NCBI GenBank assembly: GCA_046757025.1 | Contig: JBHHXN010000148.1 | Location: 1 to 13,063, forward strand | Length of the DNA stretch: 13,063 nucleotides | Direction: 5' to 3' | DNA from: a bacterium | GTDB lineage: Bacteria; Zhuqueibacterota; Zhuqueibacteria; Oceanimicrobiales; Oceanimicrobiaceae | Translations under genes and position numbers: made by a program | The notes under the pieces: generated by a model | What the model saw: the letters and a program-made list of their open reading frames with translations, nothing else | Told to the model about the DNA's origin: nothing | Database searches by the model: none | In this document: positions 4,397 through 12,646 of the stretch, piece after piece | Numbering within the stretch: the first letter of the stretch is position 1 | Layout: each line of letters opens with the position of its first letter

Positions 4397-5287
4397 ATGA
4401 AATTCAAGATTGAAAATTTGTCGTTCACTTATAAATCGTTTGGCGCTTCCACAAAATGTGCTTTGAAGGAGATAAATGTCCAAATTCAATCGGGAGAATT
4501 TGTCTGTTTGATCGGGCCTTCGGGCTCCGGCAAAACAACCCTTATGCAGCACTTCACCGGCCTGTTAAAGCCGGACCACGGCCGAGTTGTGTTTGAAGGA
4601 AAAGATATCTGGGGGAAGGAATGCAACCTAACTTCCCTGCGACGCAAAGTTGGGCTGGTATTTCAATTTCCAGAAAAGCAATTATTTGCTGAGACTGTTT
4701 ATGAGGATATCGCCTTTGGCCCTAAAAATTTAAGTTTAGATGAATCGGAGATCCGAGAAAGGGTTCGGTCTGCCATGGAGAGGGTTCAGCTCGAATTTGA
4801 GACCTTTGCGGAGCGTTCACCGTTTTCATTGAGCGAAGGCGAAAAAAGGCGGGCGGCGCTGGCCGGAGTTCTGGTCATGCAGCCCGAAATGCTGATCTTG
4901 GATGAGCCCACTGCCGGCCTGGATCACAAAGGTGTGAACGTCATGCTCGACATCCTGCACGATTTTCACAGCCGGGGTAAAACCCTCCTGCTGATTTCCC
5001 ACAATTTGGACCTGGTCGGCATACTGGCATCGCGCGTGCTGGTACTCAACGAAGGTCAAATGCGGTTCGATGGCTCGATTCGCGATTTGTTCAAGGATAG
5101 CGAATTGTTGCAATCTCTCGGCTTGGAGCGGCCGCGGTTGCAAGTGATCGTTCAAAAACTCAAGCAGAATGGCTGGCTCAAAACAGAGGCGATTTATTCC
5201 GTCGAACACTTGAAAAAAGAGTTGGTTAAACATCCCCGGTTCAGGAAATCTACACGGCAGAAACTACCCGTAATTGACAAGCTATAA
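4397..5287 (+). CDS. ecfA2: Energy-coupling factor (ECF) transporter ATPase, EcfA2/CbiO-like
   Basis: Walker A GPSGSGKT, ECF-type Q-loop/Q-helix LVFQFPEKQLF, DIAFGPKNL, signature SPFSLSEGEKRR, Walker B LILDEPTAGLD and H-loop ISHN. Confidence 0.85.
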   Translation: MKFKIENLSFTYKSFGASTKCALKEINVQIQSGEFVCLIGPSGSGKTTLMQHFTGLLKPDHGRVVFEGKDIWGKECNLTSLRRKVGLVFQFPEKQLFAETVYEDIAFGPKNLSLDESEIRERVRSAMERVQLEFETFAERSPFSLSEGEKRRAALAGVLVMQPEMLILDEPTAGLDHKGVNVMLDILHDFHSRGKTLLLISHNLDLVGILASRVLVLNEGQMRFDGSIRDLFKDSELLQSLGLERPRLQVIVQKLKQNGWLKTEAIYSVEHLKKELVKHPRFRKSTRQKLPVIDKL

Positions 5288-5517
5288 ATGGAAACCTGTG
5301 TAAATTTAAACCACGTGATCGAAAAGTAACCGATTTTACTGAATGTGAAATGAGAATCAGGGTAAAAAAAATAATGCCGTAATATCTAAATACTCATTTT
5401 AACAAAAATTTCAGAATTGTTAATAACTGAATTAATAGACAGTTAAAAAAATTCCTTCCTCAAATTTTATTCCTAAGCGATTCCGCGAAAATTTACGAAA
5501 TTACCCATTTTGGGCGG

Positions 5518-5533
5518 TGGCATAGTCTTTGCA
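5518..5533 (+). promoter_or_regulatory. Sigma-54 (RpoN) -24/-12 promoter upstream of the bEBP gene
   Basis: TGGCATAGTCTTTGCA: GG (5519-5520), 10-nt spacer, GC (5531-5532). Close match to the TGGCAC-N5-TTGCW consensus, preceded by an AT-rich tract. Confidence 0.8.
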
Positions 5534-5671
5534 AATACCCTGCTCAATTCAACTAACAATTTGGTCAGTTCATTCTGATTGCCGAGTTAGATGCAGGTGA
5601 AGTGCTCAATTCGATTCTGGCTCAGTACACGTAAATTACGGTTTATAAAAAATTGAGAGGATAATTTCAAG

Positions 5672-6805
5672 ATGTCAGTTGCTGTGGTCGATAAATACTT
5701 AGACAAAGCTCATAACATGCGGTTATTTGAGGAGATTAAGCGGCATTCGATAATGAAAGAAACCGATTACGCAAATATCGAAAAATCTGAATGGGGAAAG
5801 AATTACGGCTTTGATTTCCATTATCCTTTGGTCAGTAGCAGTCCAGAGATCAAAGACATTTTAAATCTGGTTAAAAAGGTAGCCAAAAGCAACGCCACTA
5901 TTTTGATCCACGGCGAGACCGGCACTGGCAAGGAGCTGATTGCCAGTCTTATACAATTTATCAGCCTGCGAGCGGATAAGCCTTTTATCAAGGTCAACTG
6001 TGCGGCGCTGCCGGAAAACTTATTGGAAAGCGAGCTCTTTGGACACGAAAAGGGGGCTTTCACCGGGGCGTATCAAACTCGCATTGGTAAATTTGAACAA
6101 GCCGATGGCGGCACGCTGTTTTTGGATGAAATCGGCGATATGCATTTGACCACCCAGGCGAAAATCCTGCGGGTTTTGCAGGATCAAACTTTCAATCGGC
6201 TGGGCGGCAACCGCACCATCAAAGTCGATGTGCGCGTAATTGCCGCCACCAACAAAGAGCTGATGGAGGAAATCGAGGCCGGGAACTTTCGCGCAGATTT
6301 GTACTACCGCCTGAATGTGGTCACCCTGCAGGTACCGCCGCTTCGTCAGAGGCGGGAAGATATTCTGATTATTGCAGATTATTTTCGTAGAAAGTTTTCA
6401 CAGGAAATCAGAAAAAATGTGCCGGGATTTACCCCTGAAACCACCGCGTTGTTGAAAAACCACTCCTGGCCGGGAAATATTCGCGAGCTGAAAAATTTGA
6501 TCGAGCGCGCGGTTCTAGTGGCCGAAGATGGCAATATGATCACCCCGGTGGATTTGGCCATGCCGGGCAAGGATTATTTCGCGGCGGGTGGACGCGACCG
6601 ACGCCGGCACAGCGATGGCGAACTCATCAGCTTCGATACCTTGAATCTGGCTGAAATTGAAAAGGAAACCATTTTGCGGGCGCTGCAGGTGAGCAATTGG
6701 ATTCAAAAAGACGCTGCCATCTTGTTAGGAGTTTCGCCTCGCGCCCTCAATTACAAAATCAATCAGTACGACATCACCCATCCCTCCTGGAAAAAGAATA
6801 CATAG
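5672..6805 (+). CDS. Sigma-54-dependent transcriptional activator (bEBP: AAA+ plus Fis-type HTH) lacking an N-terminal sensory domain
   Basis: Walker A GETGTGKE, ESELFGHEKGAFTGA, Walker B LFLDEIG, FRADLYYRLNV, WPGNIREL and C-terminal HTH QKDAAILLGVSPRALNYK. Only about 50 aa precede the AAA+ domain. GAGAGGA RBS at 5655-5661. Confidence 0.93.
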   Translation: MSVAVVDKYLDKAHNMRLFEEIKRHSIMKETDYANIEKSEWGKNYGFDFHYPLVSSSPEIKDILNLVKKVAKSNATILIHGETGTGKELIASLIQFISLRADKPFIKVNCAALPENLLESELFGHEKGAFTGAYQTRIGKFEQADGGTLFLDEIGDMHLTTQAKILRVLQDQTFNRLGGNRTIKVDVRVIAATNKELMEEIEAGNFRADLYYRLNVVTLQVPPLRQRREDILIIADYFRRKFSQEIRKNVPGFTPETTALLKNHSWPGNIRELKNLIERAVLVAEDGNMITPVDLAMPGKDYFAAGGRDRRRHSDGELISFDTLNLAEIEKETILRALQVSNWIQKDAAILLGVSPRALNYKINQYDITHPSWKKNT

Positions 6806-6983
6806 TGTCTGAACGAAAACTCGAAAAATGCACGATTTCTAAACCTCTTCGCGAAGGCGTCCCTTCGACAAGGTTCAGGACAGGCCCTTCGACAAGGCTC
6901 AGGACAGGCCCCGCCGAGCTGAGCAGGAATTCACCCTCGGCCAGGAGGCCTTCAGGAGGAGGGGGTAGTTTTCGTTCAGACAC
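6805..6983. mobile_element. MITE copy 2 (179 bp, non-autonomous)
   Basis: Perfect 16-bp TIRs GTGTCTGAACGAAAAC (6805-6820) and GTTTTCGTTCAGACAC (6968-6983). 6-bp direct repeat TACATA at 6799-6804 and 6984-6989. Confidence 0.9.
6861..6908 (+). repeat. Tandem 2 x 24-bp REP-like unit inside MITE copy 2
   Basis: CCCTTCGACAAGGTTCAGGACAGG (6861-6884) followed by CCCTTCGACAAGGCTCAGGACAGG (6885-6908). Confidence 0.85.
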
Positions 6984-7029
6984 TACATAATTTTCCAATT
7001 ATTGGTAAATAGATGCTCCATCGTTCACC

Positions 7030-7062
7030 AGAGGAATCAGTTGTTTGATTCCTCTTTTTTTT
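7030..7062 (+). terminator. Intrinsic terminator of the bEBP transcript
   Basis: Perfect 10-bp stem AGAGGAATCA / TGATTCCTCT, 6-nt loop, followed by a T run to 7062. Confidence 0.82.
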
Positions 7063-7168
7063 GCAATTCCTTCCATCTCCAGTCATAATTTCCTCATATT
7101 TGTTGATCGAACCCCTAAAAATGGAGATCACAGATCTGTTCAAAAAAGTCTCGAAATTCAATTTTCTG

Positions 7169-7328
7169 CAGGCTGAGTCCTGCGAAGGAGTTCAGAGCCT
7201 GCTCTGAACCTGGCGATGGGATAAACACTGCGGCTGAAGAATCTCTGACTTACATCGTTTTTTTATTTTATCGCACTTTGTAGCACGGGATTTTTCGTTT
7301 CTTCCGCTGCGAGGAATCGTTCAGAATG
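7169..7328. repeat. Degenerate REP/BIME-like palindromic cluster
   Basis: Minus-strand relatives of the 24-bp unit at 7169-7188 (CCTTCGCAGGACTCAGCCTG) and 7198-7220 (CCCATCGCCAGGTTCAGAGCAGG). Perfect inverted repeat GTTCAGAGC-CT-GCTCTGAAC (7190-7209). GAAGAATCTC (7236-7245) can pair with GGGATTTTTC (7287-7296). Confidence 0.5.
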
Positions 7329-7589
7329 CGCATTTTGGAAGATAGCTGAGCGAAATGGATACTTTACAATTTTGCAAAGAAAAAGATTTGACAGCAGAGA
7401 ATTAATTGAGAGAGAATTCAATTTTGAAGCCACATCCCATCAGGGAACCGGTTTCCCAATTTCATTTTTCAGATATTACATTATCGTATTACCGGGCTGT
7501 AATTATATTAAGTAATTTTAAAATAAACCCGAAACCAGACTCAGTATAAATTCAAATATTACAATGAAATAGGATGGATATTAAATACG

Positions 7590-7605
7590 TGGCATATCCT
7601 TTGCC
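7590..7605 (+). promoter_or_regulatory. Sigma-54 -24/-12 promoter of the surface-protein gene
   Basis: TGGCATATCCTTTGCC: GG (7591-7592), 10-nt spacer, GC (7603-7604). Shares GTGGCATAnnCTTTGC with the promoter at 5518. Confidence 0.8.
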
Positions 7606-7651
7606 AGTAGCTAACCACAATGTTGAATACGAATTGAAAGGAGCTGTTAGG

Positions 7652-9226
7652 ATGATGATTACTACAAAGGACAGACTAACCATTTTCGGAATCATTCTGT
7701 TTATTTCGGTAATGGCTTCTTCCATGGCCTTCGCAGGCAGCGCCACCGTAACCTGGGATGCTAACACGGAAAGCGATTTAGCCGGCTACAAAATTTATTA
7801 CGGAACCGTCAGCCAAAATTACAGCCAGATCATCGATGTGGGTAATTTAACTTCACACCAAATTTCAAATCTGCAAGGTGGACAGACCTATTACTTCGCG
7901 GTAAAGGCTTACGATGTCGCCGGCAATGAGAGCGCCTTTTCGAACGAAGTCAGCGCCTTCATTAATTCTGCTAATACCGACACCAACGCACCGGAGCTGG
8001 TGGCTGTGGTGCCGAGAGGCGAAACGCAAATCGACGTCATGTTTTCTGAATCCGTGAGCAAGGCTTCCGCAGAAAACGCTTCAAATTATTCCATCAGCAA
8101 CGGCGTGCAAGTTTTGGGCGCCATTTTGGATGCCGATGAAAAAACGGTGCATTTGATAACAAGCGCCTACAACCGGGGCCAGGAATATACGCTCTCCATC
8201 AGCCATGTTGAGGACCTCAGTGGAAACGTGATTGCCGCCGGCACAGCCCAGAATTTTAGTTTACCGAATCCCAACAGCGACAGCACCCCGCCAAGTATCA
8301 TTTACGCCGTCGCCGTGGATGAAAGTCATGTAGATGTGGTATTTAACGAAGCCCTGGATCCCAATTCGGCAAACCGTGCCAGCAATTACTCCATCAACAA
8401 TTCTGTGCGGGTTACCGGAGCGCAACTAAAGGACAATCAATCTATCGTGCAATTGACCACCTCGGCTCACAGTGCGAATACATCGCATACGTTGACCGTC
8501 AGCGGCGTGAAGGATGTCGCTGGCAACGCCATTCAAAACAACAACACCTACACCTACAAATGGGAATCGGGCAACAACAACAGTGATACCACACCGCCAC
8601 AATTGATTTCGGTTTCCAAAAAAGGCCTCACTCAGATCGATATCAATTTTAGCGAACCGGTGGAAAAATCATCCTCTGAAAACATCAACAACTATTCCAT
8701 CACAAACAACATCGAGATCATCGGGGCGGTGCGAGACGCAAATTTAACCACCGTACATTTGCTTACTTCCACCCACCAAAACGGCGTAGATTACACAGTC
8801 ACCGTAATCAATGTGGAGGATTTTTCCGGTAATAAAATCACCTCGAACAATCAGCTGAGCTACAAATTCACAACGAATGATCCACCGCCCGGTGACGGTC
8901 CCCTGCCAGAATCGTTCTCGTTGTTTCAAAATTACCCGAATCCGTTCAATCCGGAAACAGAAATTCGCTTTTTCCTGGATGAAAAGCGCAAAGTCGAGTT
9001 GAATATCTACAATCCTCTGGGGCAGTTGGTGCGCTCGCTGGTAAATGACGAGCTGAATAGAGGGCTGCATTCATTTATCTGGGACGGCACCAATAAACAT
9101 GGCAAGCAAGTGCCCACCGGGGTGTATATTTACAGCTTAGAAGTGAGTCAGAACATCGTGAACGGCAACATTTTGGTCAACCTTTCGCGTGAACGCCGGG
9201 TGCGTAAGATGACTCTCATTCGATAG
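7652..9226 (+). CDS. Secreted surface protein: Sec signal + FN3 domain + three Ig-like (Big_5/SbsA-type) repeats + FlgD-Ig / T9SS-like C-terminal tail
   Basis: Start moved from 7574 to ATG 7652: AAAGGAG RBS at 7637-7643, then signal peptide MMITTKDRLTIFGIILFISVMASSMAFA. FN3 motif TWDAN..SDLAGYKIYYG...TYYFAVKAYDVAGNES. Three ~100-aa repeats (DxxxP...FxE...NYSI...VxDxxGNxI) start near 7979, 8279 and 8585. Tail: FSLFQNYPNPFNPET...WDG...GVY...KMTLIR. Confidence 0.85.
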   Translation: MMITTKDRLTIFGIILFISVMASSMAFAGSATVTWDANTESDLAGYKIYYGTVSQNYSQIIDVGNLTSHQISNLQGGQTYYFAVKAYDVAGNESAFSNEVSAFINSANTDTNAPELVAVVPRGETQIDVMFSESVSKASAENASNYSISNGVQVLGAILDADEKTVHLITSAYNRGQEYTLSISHVEDLSGNVIAAGTAQNFSLPNPNSDSTPPSIIYAVAVDESHVDVVFNEALDPNSANRASNYSINNSVRVTGAQLKDNQSIVQLTTSAHSANTSHTLTVSGVKDVAGNAIQNNNTYTYKWESGNNNSDTTPPQLISVSKKGLTQIDINFSEPVEKSSSENINNYSITNNIEIIGAVRDANLTTVHLLTSTHQNGVDYTVTVINVEDFSGNKITSNNQLSYKFTTNDPPPGDGPLPESFSLFQNYPNPFNPETEIRFFLDEKRKVELNIYNPLGQLVRSLVNDELNRGLHSFIWDGTNKHGKQVPTGVYIYSLEVSQNIVNGNILVNLSRERRVRKMTLIR

Positions 9227-9250
9227 AATTTTTCTTCCTCCCTCGTAGAT

Positions 9251-9292
9251 AGGCCGGGTAGTCCTGATGAAACTACCTGGCCTTATTTATTT
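9251..9292 (+). terminator. Probable intrinsic terminator after the surface-protein gene
   Basis: 12-bp stem AGGCCGGGTAGT / ACTACCTGGCCT (one G-U pair), 9-nt loop, followed by TATTTATTT. Confidence 0.65.
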
Positions 9293-9309
9293 AAATTCTG
9301 AAATTAATG

Positions 9310-9338
9310 TTGACTGTGATGATTATATTTAGTATATT
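9310..9338 (+). promoter_or_regulatory. Candidate sigma-70 promoter for the polysaccharide export genes
   Basis: TTGACT (9310-9315), 17-nt spacer, TATATT (9333-9338), about 40 nt before ATG 9380. Confidence 0.6.
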
Positions 9339-9379
9339 TTTTCTTGCTAAAGGATTATATGTATTAAACTTGGATTATA

Positions 9380-11359
9380 ATGAACAGGAAGTTTTTCGGT
9401 TCAATTCTGATATTATTCATCTTCATTTTCTCCCAATCGAGCCCATCCCAAATTCACCTTAATTCTGTGTCAGATACCTCTAAGGTACAACCGCAATCCA
9501 ATCTCGATTATCGAACTATTTTCAACCGCACAATCACCGCTCCGCAATCGGAGCAGGTTCAAAACAAACCGCTTTCGATTTTTGGAGTGGAGCTGTTCAA
9601 AAAAGACCTGAGCAATCTGGCCGGTGAAGGCTCCGAAATCTTTATCCTGCCGCCTGAATACAAATTGGGACCCGGGGACAAAATAGGGGTATTTCTTCTG
9701 GGGAAAGTGCAGGAAAATCTCGAAGTCACGGTGAATGTGGAAGGCAAGATATTCATTCCGCCGGTTGGCGTCATCTATGTCTGGGGCTTAACCATGGACG
9801 AATTGAATGCGCTGCTGTTGAGAAAGCTCTCTAAATACTACGACAATTTCAAACTCGATCTGATGCTGCTGCAGCCGAAAAACGTCATGGTGGCGGTGGT
9901 GGGCGAAGTTCTGCGACCTGGCAAGTACGTATTGAATGCGGTGAACACTGTGCTGGACGCCATCATCACCGCCGGTGGACCGACGCTAAATGGCTCCATT
10001 CGCGACATTCGGCTGATTCGCGATTCCAGGGAGTTCGTTTCCGTGGATTTGTATCGGTTTTTGATGAGCGGTGACAACAAATACGACGAATTTCTTCAAG
10101 CCGGCGATCGCATCTTTGTTCCGCTGGTGCAGAATCAGGTTTCCATCGAAGGCGAAATCAAACGGCCATCCATCTTTGAGCTGAAATCGGGACTGCAGGA
10201 GCGTTTAACGGATCTAATCGATTTAGGCGGCGGTTTTACCGAATACGCCTTTCTCGATAAAATTGAAATCAGCCGGCTGCAGCCGGACGGCTCTCGAACA
10301 CTGCACTATGTCGATTTCAGAAAAATTATGGCTGGCGACAGCACGGACAACCTTTTACTTAAAAACGACGACAAAGTGCAAGTGTATTCAAAATTGGATC
10401 AAATACACGAACGCAAGGTGGCCATTTTTGGTGAAATCCGCAAGCCCGGTTTGTATGATCTGGAGGACAACATGCATTTGAGCGATCTCATTTTAAAGGC
10501 CGGCAATCTGACGCGCAAGGCGTACACCCTGCAAGCCGAGGTCGCGAAAATCGATCCGGGCAAGGCAACCAAATATCTTAAAGTCAACCTGCAGGATTTG
10601 AACAATCCTACCAACGGACACACCGACATCATTTTAGAAGAAGACGATCAGGTGTTTATTCGGCAGATTCCGGAATGGGAGTTCGGGCAGACCGTGGAAG
10701 TCAGAGGCGAGGTTCGGTTTCCCGGCCGCTATTCCATCATTGAAGACCGTACTTATTTGAGTGAAATATTAAAAAAGGCCGGCGGTTTTACGGACGAAGC
10801 TTTTTTGCAGGATGCCACGGTTGTCCGGCGATTCAATCGCAGCAATTTAGACAAGGAGTTTGAGCGTCTCAAAGAGATGCGTCGCGAAGAAATGAGCGAC
10901 CTGGAGTATCAATATCTGGTCATGCGGCAAAACACCAACGAGGTCAACCGACTGGTAGTGGATTTCGAGAAACTCATGCTGCAAAACGACCAGACGCAGG
11001 ATGTCATTTTACAGAACGGCGATGTCGTCGTGATTCCGAAGGCGCCCACGGTGGTCATGGTCACCGGCCGCGTGGCTCACGAAGGCGGGGTGACGTATTC
11101 GCCGGGAGCGCCTTTGAAATATTATCTGGCCAGAGCCGGCGGCGCCTCCTGGGATGCCGACCTCAAAAAAACCAAAGTCATCAAAGTGTCGGGCGAAGTG
11201 CTGGACGACGAAGATATAAACGAATTTCATCCAGGGGACGTCATCTGGGTACCGCGTAAATCCGACAAAAAATTCTGGCCAGTCCTTCTGCAAAGTATTA
11301 CCGTGATGGCGCAATTAGCTTCCATTTACTTAATCATCGATACCGCGAGTAAGCGCTGA
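9380..11359 (+). CDS. Outer-membrane polysaccharide export (OPX) protein with multiple SLBB domains (Wza/KpsD-like)
   Basis: Signal peptide without lipobox Cys. Poly_export motif LPPEYKLGPGDKI...VEGKIFIPPVG. Repeated SLBB units (VxGEVxxPGxY...xAGG...LxxGDxIxVP). C-terminal hydrophobic/amphipathic helix FWPVLLQSITVMAQLASIYLII. Confidence 0.9.
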   Translation: MNRKFFGSILILFIFIFSQSSPSQIHLNSVSDTSKVQPQSNLDYRTIFNRTITAPQSEQVQNKPLSIFGVELFKKDLSNLAGEGSEIFILPPEYKLGPGDKIGVFLLGKVQENLEVTVNVEGKIFIPPVGVIYVWGLTMDELNALLLRKLSKYYDNFKLDLMLLQPKNVMVAVVGEVLRPGKYVLNAVNTVLDAIITAGGPTLNGSIRDIRLIRDSREFVSVDLYRFLMSGDNKYDEFLQAGDRIFVPLVQNQVSIEGEIKRPSIFELKSGLQERLTDLIDLGGGFTEYAFLDKIEISRLQPDGSRTLHYVDFRKIMAGDSTDNLLLKNDDKVQVYSKLDQIHERKVAIFGEIRKPGLYDLEDNMHLSDLILKAGNLTRKAYTLQAEVAKIDPGKATKYLKVNLQDLNNPTNGHTDIILEEDDQVFIRQIPEWEFGQTVEVRGEVRFPGRYSIIEDRTYLSEILKKAGGFTDEAFLQDATVVRRFNRSNLDKEFERLKEMRREEMSDLEYQYLVMRQNTNEVNRLVVDFEKLMLQNDQTQDVILQNGDVVVIPKAPTVVMVTGRVAHEGGVTYSPGAPLKYYLARAGGASWDADLKKTKVIKVSGEVLDDEDINEFHPGDVIWVPRKSDKKFWPVLLQSITVMAQLASIYLIIDTASKR

Positions 11360-11365
11360 AAATTT

Positions 11366-12646
11366 ATGAACCCACCACAGCAAAACCTGAACCATTCAGT
11401 GGATGAAATCAATTTGCTGGATTACGTGAATATCCTTGTAGAGCACCGCCGCATGATCTTGCGCAACACCCTGTTGGTCGCGCTGTTTGTGAGCGTGTTC
11501 AGTTTTTTTCTGCCAAAATATTACAGCGCTACCACCACGCTGCTGCCACCAGACGAGGCCGAACCTTCCGGACTGAAAGGCTTGCTTTCAAATGCCCCGA
11601 TTTCGGTGCTCAATTTGCCCGGCGTGCCGGCTTCCTCATCGGAAATTTTCGTGGAAATCTTAAAAAGCCGTTCGGTAGGGGAAGGAGTGCTGAAACGAAA
11701 ATATGCCTTCGAAGGGGAAAAAAAAGATTTGTACCAGATCTGGGATATAGACAGCAAAGCCAGAGCGCTTAAGAAATTGTCAGAAAATACTCGAATTTCC
11801 TCCAACGAGCAGAGCATCATTGAAATTGCCGTGGAAATGAAAAATCCGCAATTGGCCGCCGAAGTGGCCAATGCGTTCACCGCTGAGCTGGATCGTGTGA
11901 ATAAAGAAAAAAGCTTTTCCAAGGCTAAGAATTCCCGAATCTACATCGAGGAGCAGTTGCAGAAAACCGAATTGCAATTAAAACAGGCCTCGCAAACGCT
12001 GGCGGAATTTCAGTCAAAATACAAAGCGGTGGATTTAGAAGAGCAAACCCGCATCGCCATCGAAAAAGCCGGCGAAATTAAAGGCACCATCATGGCCAAA
12101 GAAGTGGAGCTGCAAGTGACCCTGCAAACCATGAAACGAGATAATCCCATCATTGAGCGGCTGCAAAAAGAGCTGGATGAGTTGAAAAAACAGTTTGAGC
12201 ATTTGCAGTTCGGCAATTCGGTGCTGTCCGAAGATCAGAAAGATTACTTCATTCCATTCGCCGACGTCCCGGCGGTCGGGCTGAGGTTGGCGGAATTGAT
12301 TCGCGAGGTGAAGGTGCAGGAAACCGTCTGGCAGCTTTTAAACCAACAATATTACAGCGCCAAAATTCAGGAGGCGCGCGACACGCCCACGGTTCAGGTT
12401 CTCGATGAGGCGGTACCGCCGGAAAAACGCTCTAAACCAAAACGGAAAATGCTGGTGATGGTGAGCAGCCTGCTAGCCATGATGTTTAGCGTTTTTTGGG
12501 CATTTGTGCTGGAATTTGGCGAGAAAGTCAAACAAAATCCGGAGGATTTCCAGAAACTCAAACACATCGTCCAGGAAATTCGACAGGACTTTGAAACGAT
12601 GAAGAAATTCTTCTCCCGGCTCTTCCAAAAAGTTAAGAAAAATTAA
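11366..12646 (+). CDS. Polysaccharide co-polymerase / chain-length determinant (Wzz/GumC/Wzc-N-like) without a kinase domain
   Basis: N-terminal DEINLLDYVNIL plus TM1 and PKYYSATTTLLPP. Long periplasmic coiled coil. VQVLDEAVPPEKRSKPK before TM2. Short cytoplasmic tail with no Walker A. Starts 6 nt after the OPX stop. Confidence 0.88.
   Translation: MNPPQQNLNHSVDEINLLDYVNILVEHRRMILRNTLLVALFVSVFSFFLPKYYSATTTLLPPDEAEPSGLKGLLSNAPISVLNLPGVPASSSEIFVEILKSRSVGEGVLKRKYAFEGEKKDLYQIWDIDSKARALKKLSENTRISSNEQSIIEIAVEMKNPQLAAEVANAFTAELDRVNKEKSFSKAKNSRIYIEEQLQKTELQLKQASQTLAEFQSKYKAVDLEEQTRIAIEKAGEIKGTIMAKEVELQVTLQTMKRDNPIIERLQKELDELKKQFEHLQFGNSVLSEDQKDYFIPFADVPAVGLRLAELIREVKVQETVWQLLNQQYYSAKIQEARDTPTVQVLDEAVPPEKRSKPKRKMLVMVSSLLAMMFSVFWAFVLEFGEKVKQNPEDFQKLKHIVQEIRQDFETMKKFFSRLFQKVKKN

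Follow-up and report, generated by a model that had tools for sequence, protein, structure and literature searches.

A sensorless enhancer-binding protein of KSB1 bacteria as the proposed second tier of a sigma-54 relay to a T9SS-tailed surface protein

Does an enhancer-binding protein that lacks any sensory domain switch on its own gene, or does another factor switch it on? The question is raised by a 13,063-nucleotide stretch of DNA (the window), the whole of contig JBHHXN010000148.1 (C148) in a 5.96-Mb, 94.8% complete genome of the Zhuqueibacterota (assembly GCA_046757025.1). The window encodes a sensorless bacterial enhancer-binding protein (bEBP), whose closest homologs are labelled candidate division KSB1, Zhuqueibacterota, Calditrichaeota or Caldithrix (hereafter KSB1). 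The next gene codes for a putatively secreted protein with fibronectin type III (FN3) and immunoglobulin-like (Ig) domains, and is followed by genes for an outer-membrane polysaccharide export protein (OPX) and a polysaccharide co-polymerase (Table 1). A first-pass annotation, made from the sequence alone, had placed near-identical sigma-54 promoters before the bEBP gene (P1) and the FN3/Ig gene (P2) and had proposed that the bEBP activates both. The locus is real and conserved across KSB1, and the analysis reported here favours a different wiring for it.

We propose, with a probability of roughly 0.6, that the locus forms the second step of a sigma-54 relay with two tiers. A bEBP with a receiver (REC) domain, encoded on contig C15, would bind tandem TGT-N11-ACA sites (motif B) at P1 and so transcribe the gene of the sensorless bEBP; the latter, with no folded input domain, would be active once made, and would bind tandem ATTAC-N6-GTAAT sites (motif A) at P2, leading to expression of a surface protein with a type IX secretion system (T9SS) tail. 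The first tier, through motif B, would also switch on two exopolysaccharide (EPS) clusters on contig C1 together with other envelope and signalling genes, and the second, through motif A, would also drive an unlinked barrel gene on contig C5.

Phylum-wide counts refer to 167 genomes and those of a closer set to 41 relatives; f1 to f26 denote family-level groups of the phylum relatives, f1 being the family of the host genome (G000). An ortholog of the bEBP was found in 38/41 relatives and in 127/167 phylum genomes, almost always in one copy (three f6 genomes have a second), and was not found in the 31 genomes of f20 to f26. The 119 bEBP loci compared represent most, though not every one, of the ortholog-bearing genomes (n = 127), and many of these loci end early. 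The reversed pattern served as the control for genome counts of both motifs.

Two sigma-54 promoters and their upstream enhancers

The consensus TGGCAY-N5-TTGC has two exact matches in the window against 0.06 expected, a number reached in none of 200 shuffles, which bears out the two RpoN promoters of the first-pass annotation, one for the bEBP and one for the next gene. The rpoN gene that the annotation needed is encoded in the genome, as are about 46 bEBPs. The P1 box is kept in 17/17 same-family loci with enough upstream DNA, and the P2 box in 17/17 that hold the adjacent FN3 gene. As for the near-identity of the promoters, the boxes themselves are real; the same consensus occurs in 71 copies across the genome, so that the likeness of P1 to P2 is that of the general consensus only, and we rejected it as evidence of a shared activator. 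Footprinting revealed that P1 and P2 carry different upstream enhancers, a feature absent from the first-pass annotation.

The enhancer of P2 is motif A. Twenty of 23 P2 regions match ATTAC-N6-GWAWTAC-N6-GTAAT at 15-17 of its 17 positions, and the 16 same-family ones do so at -113 to -117. With its own site excluded from training of the position weight matrix (PWM), P2 remains the best motif A match of the genome. Among 126 intergenic boxes it ranks first and P1 46th, with 16.2 bits at P2 against 2.8-4.0 bits at P1, and within f1 a score of at least 10 bits is reached at 17/17 P2 and 2/17 P1 regions, 15 of these P2 sites having served in training. The remnant at P1 (2.8-2.9 bits, shuffle p about 0.1) occupies the position of strong motif A sites in f2, f8 and f10, and possibly provides a weak self-input. 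Across the closer set the exact tandem pattern occurs in 23/41 genomes (reversed control, 1), and the downstream regions (n = 101) have motif A in 39 cases and motif B in 1. In one relative (G032) the FN3 ortholog and the bEBP are on separate contigs, and the former keeps motif A and box. In the 31 genomes in which no sensorless bEBP was found, motif A with a box gave 2 against 4 for the control.

A second motif A target, before which most second matches of the exact tandem pattern fall, is the unlinked outer-membrane barrel gene (C5:57603-58664), which has motif A at -113 in this genome and motif A with a box at -112 to -124 in eight relatives; a ninth has motif A without a matching box, as do four other motif A matches. 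The barrel protein has no Pfam match. Its structure model (mean predicted local distance difference test, pLDDT, 68) comprises a small beta domain at the N-terminus, joined by a disordered linker to an 8-stranded barrel that resembles those of OmpA and OmpX (Foldseek E 2e-7 to OmpA). We also observed a tandem motif A of 23.7 bits on contig C184 of the host genome (L210:380-575), 181 nt 5' of a sigma-54 box and before an operon for a small heme-motif lipoprotein, a thioredoxin-like protein, a DUF3570 protein and ApbE.

At P1, by contrast with P2, the enhancer is motif B: a symmetric 17-bp PWM, trained without this genome and without 4/5 f9 promoters, scores 19.4 bits there, a value reached in 0/1000 shuffles, and -3.3 at P2. 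The simpler pattern TG-N13-CA-N1-2-TG at -240 to -160 occurs in 33/97 P1 regions against 2.2 expected, and in 2/44 P2 regions. Among 89 P1 boxes, motif A accompanies 33 and motif B 62, with 44 having motif B alone, 15 motif A alone and 18 both, the motif B counts being partly circular in that other P1 sites were in the training set. A reading of the P1 element as the end of the upstream ATPase gene was rejected, since in f10, which lacks that gene upstream, the element is still found near -220. We also discarded a 36-bp family-specific PWM for it, which had no other sigma-54 promoter in its top 40 genome matches; the symmetric 17-bp model found some.

Scanned across the genome, tandem motif B has 37 matches of at least 17 bits, 21 of them intergenic, and 11 of these 21 precede a sigma-54 box, compared with 14% of random intergenic places. 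Motif B with a box is found in 118/167 genomes (reversed control, 5), and 18/30 fetched matches stand before orthologs of this genome's motif B targets. Those targets include, on C1, an EPS cluster (STAS-Wza-Wzc-WcaJ) and another with members of TIGR03019 and TIGR03006; the cluster families include Wzc, and the WcaJ-type (TIGR03025), TIGR03019 and TIGR03006 proteins score over cut-off. Further targets are a Ser/Thr kinase, response regulators and barrels. A weaker one (13.3 bits) is a sigma-54 operon on C15 (L299:11998-19999) for a tetratricopeptide repeat protein, an Ig/FG-GAP protein with a type B-like tail, a PorP/SprF family member, ExbB and ExbD.

Table 1. Features of the window discussed in the text, in order of position.
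Feature	Position	Strand	Basis or remark
Motif B, tandem 17-bp TG(T)-N11-(A)CA sites (5297-5313, 5316-5332), 221 nt 5' of P1 box	5297..5332	+	PWM
Degenerate motif A remnant ATTTC-N6-GTTAA, at -110 of P1	5408..5423	+	PWM at background
P1, sigma-54 -24/-12 box of bEBP gene, TGGCATAGTCTTTGC	5518..5532	+	Exact consensus match
Sensorless bEBP, 377 aa, AAA+ with GAFTGA (6026-6070), Fis HTH, ITHPSWKK tail	5672..6805	+	Pfam, alignment
Insertion of a miniature inverted-repeat transposable element (MITE), outside the circuit	6805..6985		Strand not assigned; second copy 2749-2929
Intrinsic terminator 3' of bEBP gene	7030..7063	+	11-bp stem and T-run
Motif A array ATTAC-N6-GTATTAC-N6-GTAAT with third, weaker unit, 115 nt 5' of P2 box	7475..7516	+	Footprinting, PWM
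P2, sigma-54 -24/-12 box of FN3/Ig gene, TGGCATATCCTTTGC	7590..7604	+	Exact consensus match
Putatively secreted FN3 + 3x Big_5 protein, 524 aa, T9SS type A-like tail from about 8933	7652..9226	+	Pfam, TIGR04183
Conserved 3'-UTR word TTCTTCCTCCCTCGTAG, anti-Shine-Dalgarno-like core	9232..9248	+	Single genome copy
Terminator hairpin between FN3 gene and OPX	9251..9292	+	Fold -26.6 kcal/mol
Sigma-70-like promoter TTGACT-N17-TATATT of export operon	9310..9338	+	Sequence
OPX, 659 aa, Poly_export and 5 SLBB, no Cys in first 35 residues	9380..11359	+	Pfam
Polysaccharide co-polymerase, 426 aa, Wzz and GNVR, no kinase domain	11366..12646	+	Pfam, NCBIfam

Assigning factors to motifs

Pfam finds in the bEBP the Sigma54_activat, lid and HTH_8 domains, no REC, GAF or PAS domain, and nothing before residue 54; residues 1-47 are modelled at a pLDDT below 50. 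The GAFTGA loop, Walker A and B motifs, R-finger and sensor II are all intact, and the open frame is just 382 aa, leaving no input domain concealed upstream, so that the first-pass description of a sensorless bEBP with an intact GAFTGA was correct in each respect. The motif preceding the AAA+ domain aligns to an ordinary NifA linker. In a quick tree of 78 rows (10/88 candidates were dropped as short or without the Walker A pattern, and outside rows were top matches), the bEBP falls within a group of REC-bearing bEBPs that share its WVQKDAA-type helix-turn-helix (HTH; Shimodaira-Hasegawa-like approximate likelihood ratio test, 99), which suggests that it arose by independent loss of the receiver. 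Among 80 related loci listed, at least two hold orthologs and the 78 others have no match to the HTH pattern. The protein is predicted to be constitutively active.

The C15 REC-type bEBP, a single-copy gene in 144/167 genomes, offers itself as the reader of motif B. A box with tandem TGT-N11-ACA stands directly behind its gene in 16/21 loci, including 7/12 that were not preselected; behind gene and promoter follows, in 17/21 loci, a 389-aa protein (L298:8779-9945 in the host genome, with two response regulators after it) that has no Pfam or NCBIfam match. The sensorless bEBP has motif A in the corresponding place, an FN3 gene following it in 90/105 loci with enough DNA. Each factor's motif would thus mark the promoter that comes immediately after its gene, and the simplest assignment of binding, from gene neighbourhood, is that of motif B to the C15 factor and of motif A to the sensorless bEBP. 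The NtrC-type factor of contig C14 is disfavoured as a motif B binder: a perfect palindrome of another kind stands at its own promoter, and four f9 genomes that have strong motif B at P1 yielded no such factor.

Several observations weigh against this relay. The motif B sites at P1 are imperfect (the second reads TGA...CCG) and far upstream, no integration host factor consensus was found at P1 or P2 when sought, and no cognate kinase of the C15 factor was identified. Neither motif accompanies 12 of the 89 P1 boxes, and f5, f17 to f19 and part of f9 yielded no P1 box. Three of the 23 P2 regions lack motif A (two of G003, one of G040), the FN3 ortholog of G003 among them having a sigma-54 box alone. 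In f12 the bEBP and FN3 genes form one operon with motif B only (14/14), motif A following in 1/14, while motif A with a box occurs elsewhere in the genome in 5/14. Motif B with a box is present in 110/135 genomes with the sensorless bEBP and in 7/31 of those in which it was not found, even though 20 of these 31 have a C15-like factor (its HTH region 43-62% identical), so phylogenetic profiles do not separate the two factors.

The scarcity of motif B in those 31 genomes, the f12 operon and the families without a P1 box are the reasons why some credit is kept for an exchange of roles, in which the sensorless bEBP would bind motif B, activating itself and the C1 EPS clusters as a master switch with true positive feedback, and another bEBP would drive the FN3 gene through motif A. 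That motif B is the commonest motif at the bEBP's own promoter also favours such an exchange. We nevertheless consider it unlikely: motif B lies directly behind the C15 gene, the P1 regions of f2, f4, f7 and f13 have motif A (13/13) and no motif B (0/13), no other bEBP gene adjoins a motif A site in the fetched loci, and motif B with a box persists before orthologs of the EPS clusters in two f21 genomes where no sensorless bEBP was found.

Less probable still is the model of the first-pass annotation, in which the sensorless bEBP drives P1 and P2 through one motif, forming a bistable switch to which the adjoining export genes belong. It can draw on the P1 remnant placed where f2, f8 and f10 have clear sites, on motif A at 33/89 P1 boxes, 18 of them jointly with motif B, and on the arrangement in f7 and part of f9, where the bEBP, the FN3 gene and OPX lie within about 1 kb. 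In this genome one factor for both promoters does not fit a motif A at background at P1 (rank 46 against rank 1 at P2), where motif B stands instead, nor the 2/17 against 17/17 of the same family, and OPX is isolated by a terminator and a sigma-70-like promoter, with no sigma-54 box in 14/14 same-family loci. If motif A is the bEBP's site, the proposed self-activation is here apparently weak or lost, its enhancer at P1 being degenerate; in families with motif A at P1, self-feedback is likely real.

PspF and HrpR/HrpS are sensorless bEBPs that are controlled by PspA and HrpV. The host bEBP resembles them in consisting of AAA+ and HTH only, so that abundance or a partner must control it, and differs in nesting among REC-bearing bEBPs. 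That it is gated by an inhibitor of the PspA/HrpV kind, or by a ligand at its YFAAGGxxRR linker, with the motifs read by others of the 46 bEBPs, we regard as very improbable. For it speak the very high conservation of the protein (60-85% identity), suggestive of a partner, and six linker residues invariant in 31 orthologs yet of low confidence in the model; against it stand a PspF profile score (TIGR02974) of 306.1 bits for a cut-off of 443.55, no match to PspA/IM30 (PF04012) in a genome search whose control rang in 9/14, no conserved small neighbour gene seen, and no paralog within the bEBP's HTH clade in this genome.

The linker in question (6569-6607, residues about 300-312, between AAA+ and HTH; invariant residues Y302, F303, G306, G307, R310 and R311) is nearly invariant phylum-wide, and its flanks vary. 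A FleQ-like response of the linker to c-di-GMP is conceivable, with FleQ absent from the three alignments listed. The start context of the bEBP gene, (T)AAGATGTC (5665-5677), is kept across f1 and has no clear Shine-Dalgarno sequence, unlike that of the FN3 gene. Directly 5' of the bEBP in most families is a gene for an energy-coupling factor (ECF)-type ABC ATPase (4397-5287), with no transporter partners in the window, preceded by dGTPase, Memo and AMMECR1 genes. Five more bEBPs with very short N-termini are encoded on contigs C3, C11, C24, C32 and C41.

Surface protein, export genes and known systems

Between the bEBP and FN3 genes lie a terminator and a MITE, neither of which the first-pass annotation had recorded. 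The two 181-nt MITE copies of the window are 87% identical and have terminal inverted repeats; blastn finds 128 matches on 86 contigs of the genome, 61 of them at least 120 nt long. The FN3/Ig gene probably starts at 7652, after AAGGAG, whereas the ORF finder's start at 7574 overlaps the P2 box. Its product is, as had been claimed, a putative secreted protein with a sorting-like C-terminus: to the fn3 and three Big_5 domains and a signal peptide assigned by eye is added a T9SS-type tail that scores 26.1 bits on TIGR04183 (cut-off 23) and 20 bits, under the cut-off of 27, on Pfam Por_Secre_tail (PF18962). The same tail is present in 178/179 blastp matches that end their open reading frame, and orthologs range with Big_5 repeat number from about 200 aa (FN3 and tail only) to 3231 aa (L078, L074, L238 and others). 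SprA, PorV and PorU profiles all score over cut-off in the genome, with 17 PorV-family genes, and would secrete and anchor the protein. A further point against the proposed scheme is that GldL and GldM profiles had no match in the genome, where the controls were also silent; that ExbBD-type proteins energise the host's T9SS in their place is speculation on our part.

The core of the 3'-untranslated region (UTR) word, between the FN3 stop codon and the terminator, is found in 13/14 same-family loci and 0/32 others, and a 3'-UTR small RNA controlled through motif A could have this word as its seed. An Rfam scan gave two sub-threshold matches and none above threshold.

The synteny of bEBP, FN3/Ig and OPX genes extends to relatives, OPX being seen in 47/119 bEBP loci, many of which end early. 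Pfam confirms both the OPX and the co-polymerase gene after the FN3/Ig gene. The first-pass annotation had itself cautioned that the export genes have a separate sigma-70-like promoter behind a terminator, and both elements prove conserved: a hairpin of its kind is present in 15/15 same-family loci examined, and the promoter in 32/46 loci with OPX (14/14 same-family), a sigma-54 box standing there in 3/46. This places the export genes outside the direct regulon; their own promoter likely transcribes them, and the surface glycan that they may provide would be constitutive. Further along the operon in relatives come Wzi-like (10 loci), DegT aminotransferase (6), 2-epimerase (4) and hexapeptide acetyltransferase (3) genes, as well as a Gfo/Idh/MocA dehydrogenase, flippases and glycosyltransferases, a content whose likeness to the Wbp set hints, as a lead only, that the glycan may anchor T9SS cargo. 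In Porphyromonas gingivalis, T9SS type A cargo is anchored to a Wbp/Vim glycan, the Wbp set making the linking sugar, according to the available text of PMC7468200. The host shares the type A-like tail, PorU, PorV and SprA, and its relatives' OPX operons are Wbp-like; it differs in that the Wbp matches, except the 2-epimerase, fall below hidden Markov model cut-offs, and in the GldL/GldM result above.

The first-pass annotation had also drawn an analogy with the PEP-CTERM/EPS system of Proteobacteria. As far as the accessible text of Haft et al. (2006; PMC1569441) goes, the XrtA/PEP-CTERM system combines a sigma-54 box with a 17-nt enhancer of 3' end TTTACA. Motif B likewise is 17 nt long, ends in ACA (set against the paper's text, not its logo) and accompanies a sigma-54 box; the C1 EPS genes belong over cut-off to TIGR03019 and TIGR03006; and the host's sorted surface protein has its own transcription unit, as in the portions of that paper and of the report on Aquincola pepA (PMC9850573) to which we refer. 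In contrast to the PEP-CTERM arrangement, motif B precedes EPS genes and not the FN3 gene, the sorting signal is a T9SS-type tail with SprA, PorV and PorU, and a further tier, sensorless and with a motif of its own, would be interposed between REC factor and surface protein. The exosortase EpsH/XrtA (PF09721) had no match in the 94.8% complete genome (control rang in 1/14); PrsR (TIGR02915) is approached at best by the C15 factor at 436.7 for a cut-off of 502.6 (window bEBP, 335.1), and PrsK (TIGR02916) at 108.3 for a cut-off of 300; PEP-CTERM tails (TIGR02595) had no match in the genome, and the control was also silent. The analogy thus survives at the level of the genome, through unlinked EPS clusters with motif B, and fails as membership: on these comparisons, the host circuit would work like PEP-CTERM/PrsR without belonging to it.

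Two other systems offer partial parallels. In Myxococcus xanthus, as the available text of PMC9765219 describes it, one enhancer-binding protein (EBP; Nla28 and others) transcribes the gene of another, with some autoregulation and tandem sites, much as the proposed relay would use tandem sites at a sigma-54 promoter to transcribe a second EBP gene; the myxococcal EBPs have kinase partners and control development, whereas the host's second tier has no input domain and envelope outputs. In Flavobacterium psychrophilum a sigma-54 promoter serves remFG-sprCDBF (PMC9723704), again placing a T9SS-secreted surface adhesin of a bacterium of the Fibrobacteres-Chlorobi-Bacteroidetes group under sigma-54 control. 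That case differs in its type B gliding cargo and its three bEBPs, and the accessible text neither identifies an activator or enhancer nor describes a cascade.

Implications for KSB1

EBP cascades, sensorless bEBPs and sigma-54 control of the cell exterior are building blocks already known. In the literature searched, from which subscription journals were largely outside, we found no published account of such a circuit, nor of KSB1 with type IX secretion, and the available text of two KSB1 papers (PMC9012183, PMC11683472) does not mention 'sigma'. The phylum makes up 3-10% of some biofilm communities, according to the portion of PMC11683472 at hand. The analysis provides, for this uncultured phylum, two enhancer motifs, two candidate activators and lists of their targets.

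A broader idea, which we put forward tentatively and as somewhat less than an even chance, is that KSB1 runs a PEP-CTERM-like matrix programme on T9SS parts: a phylum-wide REC-type bEBP would, through a PrsR-box-like enhancer, switch on XrtA-associated EPS genes without an exosortase, a sensorless tier would add surface proteins, and the promoter of that second tier would have been rewired among relay (motif B), self-activation (motif A) and trigger-plus-latch (both). The P1 promoters across the phylum would form a natural set for comparing relay with positive-feedback wiring. If the proposal is true, the coupling of EPS to sorted surface proteins through sigma-54, found in the proteobacterial PEP-CTERM floc formers, would here be built with T9SS sorting and a sensorless tier.

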